Below, piece after piece: positions 2,468-63,218 of a stretch of DNA of 64,000 bases (position 1 is its first letter; the number at the start of each line of letters is the position of its first letter). Location of the stretch: assembly GCA_013115125.1 (NCBI GenBank), contig JABANN010000111.1, positions 1-64,000 on the forward strand. Direction: 5' to 3'. The notes under the pieces were generated by a model. The model worked only from the letters and a program-made list of their open reading frames with translations, did no database searches and was not told the DNA's origin. The translations under genes were made by a program, and so were the position numbers. This DNA comes from Perkinsus olseni. Lineage: Eukaryota.

Positions 2468-2489
2468 CCCACAGACTGTGGGCCACAGT
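2468..2489. repeat. 22-nt double-palindrome scar, 8-mer CCCACAGT
   Basis: CCCACAG-ACTGTGGG-CCACAGT. Confidence 0.85.
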
Positions 2490-2497
2490 CCCTCCCA

Positions 2498-3315
2498 ATG
2501 GTGGCGAACTTCGCCTTCTCCTAGCTCGTAGCCAGTCAGCTAACGATCGTCACAACAGCTCGAGATGTTGGCGAGTTTGTCCACGTTGGTGGAGTCTACA
2601 ATATTACCTACAATGTGAACGAGGACCATAAAGTCACGTTTGGCTTCTTTGTGGCGATTCGAACTAAGGACTCGTCTCTGCGTTATCCAGAGTATCGCTA
2701 CCAACGCTTCAACTATGGCTTCCTCTGTTGAAGGTTGGGCCTCTTACCTACACCGTGGACTTCGGCGAGCTCAGTGTTAGGCCGTGGTATGAGTCTATCG
2801 AGCAGCAGTTACTGCAGGCTGGTGCCATCGTCCCTGCCAATCGCTATCCACCTGCTGGCATTCAGCATGGCGACTTGACTACTTTGACCTACACAAGCGG
2901 TGATAGTCTGCACACAACCTTCCGTAACAAAAAGGTCAACTTCGTTAGAGTCGGCGGGTTGTTGGCCCCTGGTGTCTTCGAGTTCGCCGAGACCGTGGCT
3001 CCGTACTTCAAACTCAAGTATCTGTTACGACGGGATGGCGTTGTGGGTATACAGGCGGCCTGCAAAGGGCGTCGGCCTTCGCAGGTCGCGTTCTAACTCT
3101 CGCCCCACGACAGAGGCCTGCAGTATGAGCACCATTATTTGGTTTTGGCTGTTGCGGGTACCTTGGGACAACTCCATTAGATGATGATGCTTGTTCGCCC
3201 GACCGAATCCTTCCACCATGATGACCTACTGCATGTGGTATTAGCCAGTTGGAGCTGAAATACGATCTATGTGCCTCCTGGACGAGAGAATTTTCGTCCC
3301 GAGGCGTTGGTGTGA
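2498..3315 (+). pseudogene. Pseudogene copy A of the secreted two-domain protein family
   Basis: Homologous to 3742-4542 (GIQHGDLTTLTYTSGDS, PGVFEFAETVAPYFKLKYLLRRDGVVGIQA) but with TAG at 2522-2524, a frameshift near 2725 and TAA at 3094-3096. Confidence 0.8.
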
Positions 3316-3741
3316 GAGGCGTTCGTCATTGACTTTCATCATTCCCTCTGTCTCGTTGCTCACACGGATCCGTTTTTAATGCCCCAGGGCTAGCTTCGTC
3401 ATCTTGGTAGACGCATAACTCTAGTCAGTTACTCCACAGTCATGAGGTGGTGACAGTTAGTTGAATCGTCTATACTCCACCGAAATATTCTGCGGCACAA
3501 CGTTTCTAATACGTACGGAATCTATGCGTGACGCCGTGAGCGGTGACGCGAGGTCGTCCGTTCATCCTTGTTCATTGCATTTTCACTGAAGCTTTGATCA
3601 GGCGTGTCTCCTCGTTGTGCTCTCCTATGGTCAGAATTAACAATGTCACCCTGTATTCCCGAATTTGAACAGCATCAGCTCCTCGTTCCCGGGAGCGTCC
3701 TTGCAAAGACGTAGTCTCACGTGAGATCCAATTTTTTAACA

Positions 3742-4542
3742 ATGAACTCGGTCTCAACTTGGCTCATATCCGCTCAACTTCTGGTCATCACGACAACGCA
3801 GGAAGTCGGCAAGTTCCTCCACAGGGGTGCGTTCTTCAACATAACCTATGATGTGATGGAGGAGGGTCAAATTATGATCAGTTTCAGCTCGATGGCTCAC
3901 CCTCCACCCGGGTCCCCAGCAGGCACACCACCTGACTTCCAAGGGAATTACTTCGGGTATTACTCCCTCTCGAGGGTCAGAGGCCACACGTACGCCGTCG
4001 ACCCAGACGCCGACGTCGGGTCATGGTACGGCTCTTTTGCGATTCAACTACGACGGGCTGACGCGGCGAGGGCTCACGAGCCGCTCGCTGGTATCCAAAC
4101 TGGAGACTTGACCACCTTGACTTACACCAGCGGTGACAGTTTCATCACCGAGTTCCGTAACGAGACGATCAAGTTCATGAGGGTTGCTCACAGCTTCACT
4201 CCGGGTGTTTTCGAATACGCCGAGTCCGCGGCTCCCTACTTGAAGCTCACTTACCTGATACGTGCCGACGGTATTGTTGGTATACAGGCTAGTTGTAACA
4301 GGCGTCGTACATCTCAAGTGCCCTTCAAGCTCTCTCGACGCGACAAGGGTGTACAGTACCTTCATTATGATTTGGAGTCTGCTGGTAGGGGTACCGTGGA
4401 TCAACTTCTTTATATGGTGAACATCGTCTGCCCACGCACATACTTGCTTCACGACGATTTATCACGTGTGGTCTTTGCCACGTCTGATACGATCTATGTG
4501 GCACTTGGAGGGGCTCGACTGGTTCTCACCCGGACCAAGTAA
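3742..4542 (+). CDS. Secreted lineage-specific protein, copy B (intronless, two internally repeated domains)
   Basis: Intact ORF from ATG 3742 with a hydrophobic N-terminus (TWLISAQLLVITT); three paralogs in the window. Confidence 0.8.
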   Translation: MNSVSTWLISAQLLVITTTQEVGKFLHRGAFFNITYDVMEEGQIMISFSSMAHPPPGSPAGTPPDFQGNYFGYYSLSRVRGHTYAVDPDADVGSWYGSFAIQLRRADAARAHEPLAGIQTGDLTTLTYTSGDSFITEFRNETIKFMRVAHSFTPGVFEYAESAAPYLKLTYLIRADGIVGIQASCNRRRTSQVPFKLSRRDKGVQYLHYDLESAGRGTVDQLLYMVNIVCPRTYLLHDDLSRVVFATSDTIYVALGGARLVLTRTK

Positions 4543-5243
4543 CCCTCGTTTTCTGATTCACTAGGAATTAGCGTCTTTCGCGCAGCGTCAAGATTTTTTG
4601 TCCAATACCGTTATCATCAGCCTCTCCAGCGATGTGAAAGAACGGTTTGACTTTTAACACACCATCATCCTGACCCTTCAGGGTCGGTATTTTTCCTGTC
4701 TCCTATATCACAACGCTGTGGCCTAGCTTGAAGAGGTGAAGACTCGTGTAGGCTGGCTCAGCGAGTGGAGTTCACCGAAAACATCATCGCCGTTATTCAC
4801 GTGGTATACGATCTTTCGGCTGCTCACCTACAGGATGGTTTGCGGAAGTGTGAATTTTCTTATGGTTCGTCAATCAACAGCTGCGTGAACTCTCTCTCCA
4901 ACTCTCGATCGCCGTCTTTCGTGTATGGGCGTCACACGTAGTCCCCTGGAGAGCCGAGAGCATCGGCGCAGTCGGTCTAACCCATTTTAAACAAGTCTCG
5001 GTGACTGCCTGCTTTTGCGTTTTTCCAATTTGCGCAGCATCGGCGGAGTAACAAAATCTGACAGTGCTGTCGTGGCCCTCTCGAGCCAACCCTCAACCAT
5101 ACTCGGGATATACTACCCCCCAGTAGCCGATCCTGTTAGAGAGCTCTATCTGTTGGCGACTAAAGCGGTCTTCTTAAGCGCCGTACCCGAGGACCAAACC
5201 TGGCTGAATGGGTGAATGGCGAAGTCACCGAGCGACGTAGTTG

Positions 5244-60875: not shown

Positions 60876-61153
60876 CATGTTTCTGATAAGTTTCTGATCT
60901 TGCTGGATACAGTTGTTACTCGGGCTGGTCACTGAAAGTATTTTTTGTCGAGCTGAGCAAGGTAAGAGTTATCGTGACGGAGTCGATACCGATGGAATCA
61001 GAAACGGCTGCTCCTCGACATACTCGAATAATTGAACAGTACAGAGTATCTTCGGAATTATTCAATCATCACCCTATCCTCGAAGACTCTAGTTGGCGCT
61101 CTGAGATAGGTCTCTGTATCCTCACACCGTGTCCAGGAGGTAATAGCATCACG

Positions 61154-61439
61154 ACCACCAAAATGGCATAATGGGGAGAGTGAGTGGTTGACACGCATTC
61201 CCCCCCAGGTTCGAATCTTGGTGGGTGCACCTCGGTGCGAAAAGCGGGCCTGCAGTCCAATTACCCCCGCCGCAAGGCAGGTGGCCCGGGCAGCACTGCC
61301 TTGCGATAGGGTTGACAAAAAGCGGTCTAACCGTCGGTGTCACCGACTCGGTGACCACAACGGTCACTGCGACCTGTGGTCGGCTGGACTACAGCCCTGG
61401 TACTGATCGTATGATCACACCTGGCCTGAAGCAAAAAAA
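61154..61439 (+). mobile_element. tRNA(Val-like)-headed SINE with an A-tail and a 9-bp TSD
   Basis: A-box TGGCATAATGG (61164); loop TTGACAC; T-arm CCAGG-TTCGAAT-CTTGG (61205); structured body; A8 tail; flanking direct repeat AGCATCACG at 61145-61153 and 61440-61448; partial second copy ~49945-50065. Confidence 0.75.
61333..61354. repeat. 22-nt double-palindrome scar, 8-mer GTCGGTGA, with an empty-site paralog
   Basis: GTCGGTG-TCACCGAC-TCGGTGA; the paralog at 49984-49991 has a single GTCGGTGA in the same context. Confidence 0.92.
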
Positions 61440-61685
61440 AGCATCACGGTGATACGAACGCTGTCAGCAACTCCTAACTGGGTATTTGACGAGATCCCTA
61501 GTCGAGCATGCGAGCCCTCTGCCTGGCCCCCGTCCGAAGGCAATTGCTTGGGCGTGAAATGACGAGCTGTTCCGACGGAGATAGTGCGAGCGGGTCGGTC
61601 CCTCGTGAAACGTAATGGTGCCATTCGGCACTGATTATTCTCTAAGTAATCCCTTAGACACTACAGAAGTCACTTCTGTCGACCC

Positions 61686-61714
61686 CGGTCATCACTTCTG
61701 AGAAGTGATGACCG
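61686..61714. repeat. Perfect 14-bp inverted repeat with a 1-nt centre
   Basis: CGGTCATCACTTCT-G-AGAAGTGATGACCG. Confidence 0.9.
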
Positions 61715-63196
61715 TGTCGTCAATGCCCGTGTGTGTGAGTTTGAAATCCAACGCCTACAGTATGGCCAAACTCAGACCCTTGTTGAACAAGGCTTGTTTC
61801 CGGGCCACGAGTTTATAGAGACAAGTACAAAGACATTAGTTGACATTTTGGGGGTCGATTACAGACAGCGACTACAAAACCCCTACAATAAGCCGTCCGG
61901 AAGTGGGAGCAGTTCACGTGGTTTGGAGGTCGGAGGGGTACATGCTAGGATCCATGTATGTTGCAGGGGAAGGAAGAATGAAGGGAGTAGACTAACACGA
62001 CACTCGCCGGGGACTTCTGAAGAGAAAATAATGAAGGGAAAAATGAGCCGAGCAGAGTCGGGTGACAACTATGACAGCTGGAAGAAAGTAATAGACCCGA
62101 TACCTGTTGCGTGCGTCAGTTGACTCTAACACGAAAGTGAAGGGAGGCGCCAAGAAAGCCTTGAGTATGCGTGCAACCGTGTAGGCAGCATAGCCAACGG
62201 CAAAGCAGTGCAACTGCAGAGACAACACTGAGGATGCCATTCTCAGCCCTCAGCATCATCATACATAAGAGACATCACAGCAGCGATACTCAGTAGCTCA
62301 ATCACTTATGAATGAGCCGATAACGACTGCGTATGACAGGGTGTTAGGGGAGTCGTAGGAGTACTAGCGATAGTAGGACCAGTCCACGATAGGCCGGAGA
62401 GAGCCGAGATATGAAAAGGGGCAACTACGAGAATAGCTAACTCGTAAAGATCGATCAACTCCATAATATGGAGTTCCGGAATCCGGATACAGTCCGATAC
62501 AGCGTGTTACGGTTCCGGAACAGGTTCCGGATTCCGGAACCAACTGCTTTGATACGACCCTCCCCTACACTATACAGAGAACATACCCAGATCTGCGTCG
62601 GTAGCGAGAAAGGAGAACTTGAGCGGATTCGGTTAAGTAGTCTCGTAGACAAATAGGCCAGAGTACTTGCAGATGTGGTCACGGGGCTTTGGAGTGGTTG
62701 CGGGGCAGGGGGTAGGAGGTAAGGTAGTCTTAGAATTACCGCAGACCAGAAGGGCGATAGAGGAGATCGAGGCGATATTATCGCCGCGATAACGCGGAAG
62801 ATCATGGTCAATAACTGGGCAGCAACCTGCGAAAGGAAATCGGCGATGGTAAGGATGCCACGACACGTTGCTTCAGTTAGTGTTCACTCTAAACCCCCAA
62901 GGACTCCACAAGTCCTCACAAGGAGATACTGTGCTGATACGGTGGTCACGGGATGAGCAGCGACAGTGAAGCTAGTCCGTCTGTTGCACAAGTCAGAAAG
63001 AGCAGACGGCCATACGATCCTGAGCTGATACCAAGATTATAGCAGTATAGGCACCTGAGCATTATAGGTGCACTATAACTCAGTACAGTGTGGGTAATTG
63101 AGACGGGCTGAGAGAGTGGTAAAAGCTTGAGACTCGAGGGGAGTTGATCGATTATGAGTATTTATAGCGTAACTTCTAACCTAGCGTAAGTTCTAG

Positions 63197-63218
63197 CCTA
63201 GAAGTTCTAGGCTAGAAC
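63197..63218. repeat. 22-nt double-palindrome scar, 8-mer CCTAGAAC
   Basis: CCTAGAA-GTTCTAGG-CTAGAAC. Confidence 0.85.

Follow-up and report, generated by a model that had tools for sequence, protein, structure and literature searches.

Fixed 7/8/7 scars in a Perkinsus olseni contig, probably the healed sites of transposon excision

When Ac/Ds elements excise, they leave inserted palindromes that have the complement of the element's neighbouring base at the centre, and in yeast the arms of these can be up to 20 nt long (PMC5873905). Hairpins on the flanking DNA are made by hAT, Transib, RAG and MULE transposases (PMC5499845). Merlin elements make duplications of 8 or 9 bp, and Perkinsus marinus has two Merlin-related ORFs with the DDE motif intact, for which terminal inverted repeats (TIRs) and target duplications were sought in vain (PMC8101967).

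The DNA analysed here (the window, a single stretch of 64,000 bases, to which all scar statistics refer) carries many copies of a scar for which literature searches found no description. Among named proteins, the closest are those of Perkinsus olseni. Each reads X[1-7]+rc(X)+X[2-8], where X is an 8-mer and rc its reverse complement. The first-pass annotation had named 16 such sites, all of which (16/16) fit the pattern exactly, no two with the same 8-mer; scanning the whole window exhaustively brings the number to 36, or one exact scar per 1.8 kb instead of the one per about 4 kb given before. The sharp peak at a word length (k) of 8 that had been predicted is the only one in the scan: there were no exact sites at k=5, 7, 9, 10, 11, 12 or 13 and one at k=6, while k=3 and k=4 were at chance (242 against 259 simulated, and 12 against 16). 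In twenty first-order Markov simulations no site appeared at any k of 7 or more, and by arithmetic the chance expectation for k=8 is about 64000 x 4^-14 = 0.0002. The scar pattern in this window is thus confirmed as real. Since X[2-7] is directly repeated inside each scar, X must have been duplicated beforehand, as in a target-site duplication. The exact scars (14/14 pairs) are as follows, "earlier list" denoting the 16 sites named before and "added" those found by the full scan.

2468..2489, unstranded, canonical scar, X=CCCACAGT, exact, earlier list
9663..9684, unstranded, canonical scar, X=GTGCTGTC, exact, added
10428..10449, unstranded, canonical scar, X=GGAGCGCT, exact, added
11614..11635, unstranded, canonical scar, X=GTCCCAGG, exact, added
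15927..15948, unstranded, canonical scar, X=AGTCTACC, exact, earlier list
17962..17983, unstranded, canonical scar, X=TTCCTCTC, exact, earlier list, about 100 nt beyond the end of an aspartyl-protease ORF
19069..19090, unstranded, canonical scar, X=GAACATAG, exact, added
20756..20777, unstranded, canonical scar, X=ATCCAAGG, exact, added
20898..20919, unstranded, canonical scar, X=ACCAGACA, exact, added
27171..27192, unstranded, canonical scar, X=GAACTGAC, exact, earlier list
29039..29060, unstranded, canonical scar, X=CTGACTCG, exact, earlier list
30881..30902, unstranded, canonical scar, X=CGAGCAGT, exact, added
42553..42574, unstranded, canonical scar, X=GGGAGAGG, exact, added
47642..47663, unstranded, canonical scar, X=GTATGCAG, exact, earlier list
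48786..48807, unstranded, canonical scar, X=CAGGGGCC, added, common to the paralogous copy at 57986
49810..49831, unstranded, canonical scar, X=GGGTTGAG, earlier list, private to copy A
50228..50249, unstranded, canonical scar, X=ATAGAAGC, added, within 0-difference contigs 50034-51308 (X1, X2)
50382..50403, unstranded, canonical scar, X=TGACTCGC, earlier list, in read-built contigs
51014..51035, unstranded, canonical scar, X=TCCCTAAT, earlier list, in read-built contigs
51193..51214, unstranded, canonical scar, X=CCGTGGTT, added, in read-built contigs
51390..51411, unstranded, canonical scar, X=GAGTCTAC, exact, earlier list
52599..52620, unstranded, canonical scar, X=CACCCTTA, earlier list, within 0-difference contigs 52126-54327 (X1, X2)
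52815..52836, unstranded, canonical scar, X=TTCGTACT, added, in read-built contigs
53108..53129, unstranded, canonical scar, X=GACTCTGA, earlier list, in read-built contigs
53181..53202, unstranded, canonical scar, X=ATATAGCC, added, in read-built contigs
54377..54398, unstranded, canonical scar, X=ACTACGAT, exact, added
54892..54913, unstranded, canonical scar, X=GCCAGCGA, added, within 0-difference contigs 54812-55656
55670..55691, unstranded, canonical scar, X=ACGTGAGA, exact, earlier list
55901..55922, unstranded, canonical scar, X=GACCTCGA, exact, earlier list
56249..56270, unstranded, canonical scar, X=AGTGGGAA, exact, added
57986..58007, unstranded, canonical scar, X=CAGGGGCC, added, copy-B twin of 48786
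59952..59973, unstranded, canonical scar, X=AAGGCAGA, added, in a retroelement remnant outside the RVT_1 match, 0-difference contigs 59313-60140
60605..60626, unstranded, canonical scar, X=ACCTCCTG, added, private to copy B, run X7 contig 14 bases shorter
61333..61354, unstranded, canonical scar, X=GTCGGTGA, earlier list, private to copy B
62771..62792, unstranded, canonical scar, X=GGCGATAA, added, within 0-difference contigs 62431-64000
63197..63218, unstranded, canonical scar, X=CCTAGAAC, earlier list, set into an older odd palindrome, with three centres spaced by 7 nt from 63197 on

The spread is uneven, with 22 of the 36 exact scars within 48,001-64,000. These last 16 kb of the window are repeat-rich. 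Mutated forms were scored by how many of the 14 base pairs implied by the pattern are intact: besides the 36 sites at 14/14 there are 11 at 13, 16 at 12 and 24 at 11, where the simulated means for 14, 13, 12 and 11 pairs are 0, 0, 0.35 and 2.6. Such a decay series indicates that the scars are inherited, ageing events. Ten of the 11 sites at 13/14 are placed below.

12749..12770, unstranded, decayed scar, 13/14 pairs
19149..19170, unstranded, decayed scar, 13/14 pairs
30501..30522, unstranded, decayed scar, 13/14 pairs
48396..48417, unstranded, decayed scar, 13/14 pairs
50842..50863, unstranded, decayed scar, 13/14 pairs
52285..52306, unstranded, decayed scar, 13/14 pairs
52432..52453, unstranded, decayed scar, 13/14 pairs
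53625..53646, unstranded, decayed scar, 13/14 pairs
55172..55193, unstranded, decayed scar, 13/14 pairs
61778..61799, unstranded, decayed scar, 13/14 pairs

Two paralogous copies within the window (A and B) have one scar in common and three that are private. The common scar (48786 = 57986) lies in flanks that are identical at 324 of 341 positions and differ at 17. In place of the scar at 49810 in copy A, copy B has one diverged 8-mer; for the scar at 61333 in copy B, GTCGGTGA occurs once in copy A, at 49977-49984, opposite a 14-column gap; and the empty counterpart of the copy-B scar at 60605 also has X once. In a divergent run (X7), one contig is shorter by exactly 14 bases at 60606, inside this last scar. 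The net insertion of 14 nt and the presence/absence differences foreseen in the first-pass annotation are therefore both seen, the latter between paralogs and between runs. Read support came from contigs built from public runs, which belong to two studies (X1 and X6 from 2020, X2 from 2022); the contigs that carry scars have word depths of about 40-100. Contigs of X1 and X2 showed no differences to the window over 50034-51308 and 52126-54327, nor did further contigs over 54812-55656, 59313-60140 and 62431-64000. The window itself may derive from one of X1, X2 and X6, but the two studies agree, and the presence of the scars in contigs of independent runs argues that they are not an assembly artefact.

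How could such a scar be made? Each probably marks a place that a cut-and-paste DNA transposon has left and where the break then healed. Insertion through an 8-bp staggered cut would place X on both sides of the element. On excision, the transposase would nick each flank one base away from the element, and the 3'-OH so released would attack the opposite strand. Both chromosomal ends would thereby be sealed as hairpins, with the complement of the element's neighbouring base at the tip, a chemistry documented for hAT elements. If a host nuclease nicked both hairpins 3' of the tip, at least 8 bases away, the left end would unfold to a 3' tail, abcdefg-h'g'f'e'd'c'b'a', and the right end to its mirror image, the two tails being perfectly complementary over their final 8 bases. 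Annealing of the tails, trimming of flaps and filling of gaps would then always give X[1-7]+rc(X)+X[2-8], with a net gain of 14. A strand-by-strand re-derivation showed that hairpins with a one-base offset and an 8-bp duplication yield the observed geometry, provided that both hairpins unfold by at least 8 bases and the 3' tails anneal via the inverted 8-mer. The shape of the product would be set only by the duplication length and the one-base offset, and not by the position of the hairpin nick, which would explain its stereotypy. In all likelihood the scars are neutral relics without function. From them, past jumps and the host's way of mending DNA breaks could be read, as is rarely possible; the host may lack NHEJ.

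Of the palindromes in the window at large, only the odd ones are in excess. Odd palindromes with an arm of at least 7 number 121 against about 4 expected, whereas even ones are at expectation (4 against 2.9 for arm 7, 1 against 0.7 for arm 8), as expected if the hairpin tip is one unpaired base. Arms of scar palindromes exceed 7 in 19 of 72 cases (26%, against a chance rate of 25%), so that pre-existing complementarity is not needed. Two composite footprints were also found.

20978..21046, unstranded, composite footprint, X=GTCTATCC, arm-19 odd palindrome (centre 20997), 11-nt filler, arm-9 odd palindrome (centre 21037)
61663..61714, unstranded, composite footprint, X=CAGAAGTG, arm-8 odd palindrome (centre 61671), 6-nt filler, arm-14 odd palindrome (centre 61700)

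Both follow the scars' rule of an 8-mer with complements at the centres, and 5 simulations gave none. In the second, both centres are complements of the end bases of X; in the first, the complement of X8 stands at the first centre and T at the second, where C was expected. The excision model leaves about 34 single odd palindromes (arms 7 to 21) without detailed explanation; a second X copy beside them, at 6/7 matches or better, was seen in 4 against 1.4 expected, which is no clear enrichment.

The hairpin excision model put forward in the first-pass annotation had named hAT elements. Its geometry, the length of 8, the 14-nt polymorphism and the composites speak for it; the predicted element, transposase and hAT logo did not appear. 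No transposase domain was found in the 150 longest of the 191 ORFs, no TIR-bounded segment with an 8-bp duplication in the 64 kb beyond one weak candidate (about 0.3 expected by chance), and no allele in which two copies of X enclose an element. Also against the model, none of the 15 contig joints listed, out of 45, has shared flanking letters. Target preferences, such as the Ac-type or Buster-type consensus, are usual for hAT elements. The symmetrised logo of the scar 8-mers is flat (T at position 2 in 20/72, A at position 7 in 20/72, T at position 4 in 13/72) and shows neither consensus. The chemistry is hAT-like, and the excised element may belong to the hAT superfamily. The earlier statement that no scar lies in a recognised conserved exon was checked in 10 scar-holding ORFs; the one Pfam match among them (RVT_1) misses the scar.

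The same chemistry could have been carried out by an agent other than a free-living hAT element: another superfamily with 8-bp duplications (Merlin/IS1595-like or MULE), or a conserved and possibly domesticated transposase whose substrate is an element of very low copy number, an element that cannot be recognised, or inserted DNA that is eliminated as part of a programme. We consider this unlikely, though the flat logo, unlike the hAT consensus, and the finding of 36 young scars yet no element in 64 kb would fit it. The excision chemistry of Merlin is not known to have been described, which weakens the case, and decayed scars argue against junctions remade every generation by programmed elimination. 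Also in its favour are the intact DDE motif of the Merlin-related ORFs in P. marinus (PMC8101967) and the 8-10-bp duplications and flank hairpins of MULEs (PMC5499845). Against it, hAT footprints are the ones with a documented one-base offset, from which odd palindromes result (PMC5873905), while the hairpin of the Muta1 MULE is 43+43 nt with no offset and its yeast excisions are mostly precise (PMC5499845).

Tiny inverted triplications made by replication error, through a double template switch of the nascent strand or fold-back of a 3' flap, would need neither a transposon nor a transposase-made double-strand break. The scar layout is formally direct-inverted-direct, small cases are described in yeast rad27 mutants and cancer genomes, and their loss by polymerase slippage could also account for the few old scars here (PMC13334657). 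This origin is nevertheless quite improbable, since the known events vary widely in size, their flanking duplications ranging from 7 bp to more than 10 kb with a median of 148, contain a spacer of roughly 30 bp and depend on reverse-complementary junctions of 6 bp (PMC13334657), whereas the scars are fixed at 7/8/7 with no sites at k=7 or 9-13, have no spacer and show arm extension at chance. Priming on the opposite strand by a polymerase would require pairing; a covalent hairpin would not. An artefact of sequencing, assembly or subsequent editing may at first be suspected, since an abstract pattern of sharply defined length occurs in 36 perfect copies. This is hardly credible, given that contigs from the runs of two studies (X1, X6 and X2) carry the scars with 0 differences, that two diverged paralogs have one scar in common while each of three others occurs in a single copy, that mutated scars exist and that the divergent run has the shorter form.

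Excision by a hairpin-making transposase also sets the scars beside known systems. They resemble the footprints of Ac/Ds, Tam3, hobo and Hermes in the 8-bp target duplication, the complement-centred palindromes, the arm length, which in yeast can be as much as about 20 nt, and the use of microhomology at the joint (PMC5873905, PMC1978519). Experimental hAT footprints are, however, heterogeneous and mostly 1-3 nt; in Candida albicans, 128 revertants carried 28 different ones between them (PMC5873905). The scars, on the other hand, represent one dominant product, in which both hairpins would have been unfolded through the whole duplication and annealed, and they are known as fixed genomic relics, about one per 1.8 kb. 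RAG and Transib make hairpins without the one-base offset, and duplications of 5 bp. Even palindromes would follow from such hairpins, yet these are not enriched in the window. The P nucleotides of V(D)J coding joints and Transib nonetheless share with the scars a covalently closed flank hairpin, its off-centre opening and templated palindromic additions (PMC5499845). Muta1 has 8-9-bp duplications and flank hairpins, but its hairpin lacks the offset and more than 90% of its excisions in yeast are precise (PMC5499845). Small inverted triplications and short template-switch mutations have the direct-inverted-direct layout and slippage instability in common with the scars; the triplications differ in their variable sizes, spacers and junction microhomology (PMC13334657), where the scars are always 7/8/7 and microhomology is not needed.

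In an exhaustive scan of the 64,000-nt window for the pattern X[1..k-1]+rc(X)+X[2..k], where X is a word of k bases, 36 exact sites were found at k=8, each a 22-nt scar of the form X[1-7]+revcomp(X)+X[2-8] that adds a net 14 nt to a single X. The same scan gave one exact site at k=6 and none at k=5, 7, 9, 10, 11, 12 or 13, the counts at k=3 and k=4 were at chance level, and not one of 20 first-order Markov simulations of the window contained a site with k of at least 7. This lone spike at k=8 is what the first-pass annotation, which had ascribed the scars to hAT transposon excision followed by annealing of flank hairpins, had hoped to see in the length spectrum. 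All 16 sites that it listed have the exact structure, but its "at least 16" amounts to less than half of the exact sites in the window, which occur at a density of about 1 per 1.8 kb. Stop-to-stop open reading frames (ORFs) of at least 85 aa contain 21 of the 36 scars, an overlap that is uninformative since such ORFs span 68% of the window. The sole k=6 match (15400-15427), in an A/T-rich motif of the TTTCCGAAAAT type, has two odd palindromes whose arms are 11 and whose centres are 5 nt apart, and is probably a different thing from the k=8 scars.

Scars do not remain perfect indefinitely. When sites were scored by how many of the 14 implied base pairs are intact, there were 36 with all 14 pairs, 11 with 13, 16 with 12 and 24 with 11, against simulated means of 0, 0, 0.35 and 2.6, respectively. 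The excess of sites with 13, 12 and 11 pairs over simulation indicates that mutated scars coexist with perfect ones.

Each scar contains two odd palindromes, that is, two arms around one unpaired centre base, and it is this class alone that is enriched: 121 odd palindromes with arms of at least 7 were observed versus about 4 expected in the window, while even palindromes occurred as expected (4 versus 2.9 for arm 7 and 1 versus 0.7 for arm 8). The 36 canonical scars account for 72 of the 121. Among the 49 others, about 15 each form one half of a decayed scar whose neighbouring palindrome retains 5 or 6 of 7 pairs, and about 34 are true singles with arms of 7-21. These singles, for example those at 12953, 13509, 13590, 20645, 29475 (arm 21), 30629, 32963 and 62466, are far above chance. 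They may represent one-sided or deletion-bearing footprints, and are tied only loosely to the excision model; no clear enrichment of a second adjoining 8-mer copy was seen among the window singles tested. More elaborate arrangements also occur. At 63183-63225, three odd-palindrome centres (63197, 63204 and 63211) are spaced 7 nt apart, which looks like a canonical scar placed within an older odd palindrome, i.e., repeat events at one spot. The nested palindromes at 56539-56599 (25-nt arms enclosing two smaller odd ones) and 29439-29496 (a 15-nt odd palindrome adjoining a 43-nt one) suggest complex or successive hairpin-type events. A 69-nt inverted repeat at 10643-10711 has a self-complementarity of 93%.

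How could such a structure arise? If X is written as abcdefgh, the scar reads abcdefg h'g'f'e'd'c'b'a' bcdefgh. Since X[2-7] is present twice in direct order, X must once have been duplicated, and such a duplication is, as far as can be judged from the sequence, what an 8-bp staggered insertion leaves behind. The arms of the 36 scars extend past 7 in 19 of 72 cases (26%), compared to 25% by chance, so that there would have been no prior complementarity in the flanks. Perfect single-centre palindromes without prior complementarity are what is expected of a covalently closed hairpin if the opening nick lies at some distance from the tip. In hAT excision, the flank is nicked one base in by the transposase and the 3'-OH attacks the other strand, so that the left hairpin would read abcdefg-h'-g'...a' and the right one, on its own strand, h'...b'-a-b...h. 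A nick on the 3' side of each tip, at least 8 bases away, would then yield 3' tails ending in h'g'f'e'd'c'b'a' and abcdefgh. These two tails would be perfectly complementary and could be joined by annealing, flap trimming and fill-in. The product would always be the exact 22-mer, independent of the nick positions. Thus, we infer that the 22-mer can be derived, strand by strand, from two annealed hairpins.

Several features match the hAT pathway. The unit length is exactly 8 and unscarred sites have X once, which matches, indirectly, the 8-bp hAT target-site duplication. The enrichment of odd palindromes only matches the one-base offset of hAT cleavage, and 36 of 36 scars have centres that are complements of the last and first bases of X, as they must by definition of the pattern. 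For Hermes, the one-base offset was reportedly described by Zhou et al. in 2004. Passages in PMC5873905 describe Ac/Ds footprints as palindromic insertions whose centre is the complement of the element-adjoining base, with arms of up to 20 nt in yeast; there and in parts of PMC1978519, microhomology is described as being used at the joint. Flank hairpins are formed by hAT, Transib, RAG and MULE enzymes, according to a section of PMC5499845.

Hairpins might also be joined without annealing. Pairs of odd palindromes more than 7 nt apart, in which the 6 nt to the left of the first centre equal the 6 nt to the right of the second, were found three times in the window and not at all in five simulations. 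Two of these fit the model as unfolded hairpins joined end to end with filler and no annealing, and in these the complement-at-centre rule is satisfied by 3 of 4 centres.

Putative composite footprints in the window
20978-21046: arms 19 and 9, filler 11 nt, X=GTCTATCC; one centre correct, the other T versus expected C
61663-61714: arms 8 and 14, filler 6 nt, X=CAGAAGTG; both centres correct

The third pair, 62481/62532, violates both centre rules, lies within a TTCCGGAA-rich repeat and was not counted.

Which enzyme would have made the scars? Intact elements were sought as 8-bp direct repeats 30-8000 nt apart with at least 11 of 14 terminal inverted matches. A single candidate (52072-56570) was taken as chance, with about 0.3 expected in the window. 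The inverted repeats within 3 kb of each other between 47000 and 64000 included no convincing terminal inverted repeat (TIR) pair, and there was no transposase domain (Pfam) in any of the 150 longest of the window's 191 ORFs of at least 85 aa. Alleles with an element still lying between two copies of X, which the first-pass annotation had proposed to look for, or paralogs of this kind, turned up neither in the window nor among the 15 of 45 contig joints listed, and none of those 15 had common flanking letters. This absence carries limited weight, since a perfect scar persists until the first hit in its 22 bases and an insertion only until it is excised, and we infer that, at any ordinary excision rate, scars would outnumber resident copies by orders of magnitude. 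Nor did the 8-mers themselves resemble hAT targets. The preference is nTnnnnAn for the Ac group and nnnTAnnn for the Buster group. Once symmetrised, the logo of the 36 8-mers is flat (T at position 2, 20/72; A at position 7, 20/72; T at position 4, 13/72).

Merlin and other IS1595-like elements have TIRs ending in GG and a DDE_Tnp_IS1595 transposase; we know of no description of Merlin excision chemistry. A member of this family, or else some domesticated enzyme, is also a serious candidate for the agent, since Merlin elements make duplications of 8-9 bp, as stated in a passage of PMC8101967, which fits the scar unit of 8. Moreover, the same part of that source describes Merlin-related ORFs in Perkinsus marinus that have an intact DDE motif and no findable ends or duplications. 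On the other hand, there is no Merlin transposase among the 150 longest of the 191 ORFs in the window.

Transposase-made hairpins must also be weighed against replication error, since small inverted triplications share the direct-inverted-direct layout of the scars. As described in part of PMC13334657, however, such triplications range from 7 bp to more than 10 kb, contain a spacer some 30 bp long and depend on reverse-complementary junctions of 6 bp, whereas the scars are of fixed size and without spacer, and their arm extension (19/72) is that of chance. Junctions remade in each generation by programmed elimination are at odds with the existence of decayed scars.

The history of individual scars can be read from two paralogous stretches of the window, copies A (48510-50063) and B (57710-61426), which can be aligned in four pieces totalling 1,107 positions, 74 of them mismatched. 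Scar 48786 in A (scars are named by start coordinate) occupies the same place as scar 57986 in B, in a piece where the copies agree at 324 of 341 positions, and is therefore older than the duplication. Scar 61333 is found only in B, and A has a single GTCGGTGA at the matching place. Similarly, for scar 49810, found only in A, and scar 60605, found only in B, the other copy has just one 8-mer, which is somewhat diverged. The single X in the unscarred paralog makes one X the ancestral state and the additional 14 nt the derived one. Scars thus originate at different times, are inherited and later decay. Three private scars versus 74 substitutions suggests a high scar rate, at what is one repeat-rich locus. 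Copy B, and not A, contains a reverse-transcriptase remnant (58572-60085, minus strand; RVT_1, E 2.9e-06, below the Pfam cut-off).

The region is present in eight public runs from one organism and two studies. Contigs from run X2 of study P2 and from runs X1 and X6 of study P1, each built independently, span scar-bearing stretches without a single difference, with word depths of about 40-100.

Examples of stretches with 0 differences in contigs from the read sets
50034-51308: four scars
52126-54327: four scars; 0 differences in both X1 and X2
54812-55656
59313-60140
62431-64000

Among the indels listed for the divergent run X7, which has zero depth in the bin 53339-54005, is one in which the contig lacks exactly 14 bases at 60606, the site of scar 60605. 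In the window itself, a clean 14-column alignment gap lies opposite scar 61333. Indels of 14 nt, which the first-pass annotation had proposed to look for between haplotypes or strains, thus exist between paralogs and between runs. In X1 and X6, a paralogous contig carries 14 additional bases at 57455, which constitute a scar mutated twice. An assembly artefact, a concern raised at first, or an editing artefact is very unlikely, since scars are unchanged in contigs from two studies, though one run may be the source of the window itself, and the window holds a scar common to A and B, private scars and decayed ones. At 63069-63107 (39 nt), where 11 to 33 contigs per run begin or end matching and neighbouring bins have 8-15x the base depth, there is a high-copy short repeat or repeat boundary.

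Otherwise, the window has the appearance of nuclear eukaryotic DNA from a Perkinsus-like perkinsozoan, the latter judged from an aspartyl-protease piece with 81% identity to Perkinsus olseni proteins. Start-to-stop ORFs reach at most 301 aa, and the window contains split genes for this aspartyl protease, Sec1, ribulose-phosphate epimerase, an ArsA/GET3 ATPase, NDK and a U-box protein, along with two tRNA genes.

tRNA genes in the window
1-68: tRNA gene, cut by the window start
6339-6421, minus strand: tRNA-Ser(GCT) gene

A family of paralogous ORFs (3721-4542, 13806-14627, 10959-11336 and 2728-3096) has no Pfam match and may represent lineage-specific genes; the 3' halves of its two 273-aa members share 98% DNA identity over 493 nt, and further copies are more diverged. 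A short tandem array of TCCCGTGCTTCCCG-like units, with 9- and 18-nt steps, is found at 47830-47931.

Excision footprints of the hAT type are textbook knowledge. What seems to be new, in this one window, is that one stereotyped full-duplication product is dominant and is kept as fixed relics at about 1 per 1.8 kb. A full-text search, with subscription journals and supplements outside its reach, found no description of such scars in Perkinsus, nor of a genome-wide stereotyped hAT-type scar. It is conceivable, if rather doubtful, that a low-copy or unrecognised 8-bp-duplicating transposase, perhaps a conserved "orphan" DDE gene without recognisable ends, has been so active that its scars are a leading class of insertion mutation, in a host that may lack or bypass classical end joining, with hairpin-capped breaks opened well away from the tip in every case and sealed by annealing. 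If so, tens of thousands of scars that can be dated would be spread over the genome, and together they would amount to a full fossil record of cut-and-paste transposition, one that cannot be seen in other eukaryotes. Donor-site scars should far exceed resident cut-and-paste copies, and elsewhere they are too small and varied to be recognised. With a stereotyped 22-base product, each past excision could be counted and dated, and transposon rates, local hopping and target choice could be read from the genome. A single dominant product would imply an unusual handling of hairpin-capped breaks, opened far from the tip and then annealed, which is relevant to double-strand-break repair in perkinsozoans, dinoflagellate relatives that include shellfish parasites, and to the outcomes of nuclease-based genome editing there. 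The presence or absence of the 14 nt provides ready strain markers, and scars are to be expected as frameshifting insertions in gene annotation. Ordinary repeat finders miss them, since the copies are alike in shape and not in sequence. Introner elements of Amoebophrya (PMC7789003), whose intron ends carry inverted repeats of 8-20 nt and direct repeats of 3-5 nt, differ from the scars in structure.
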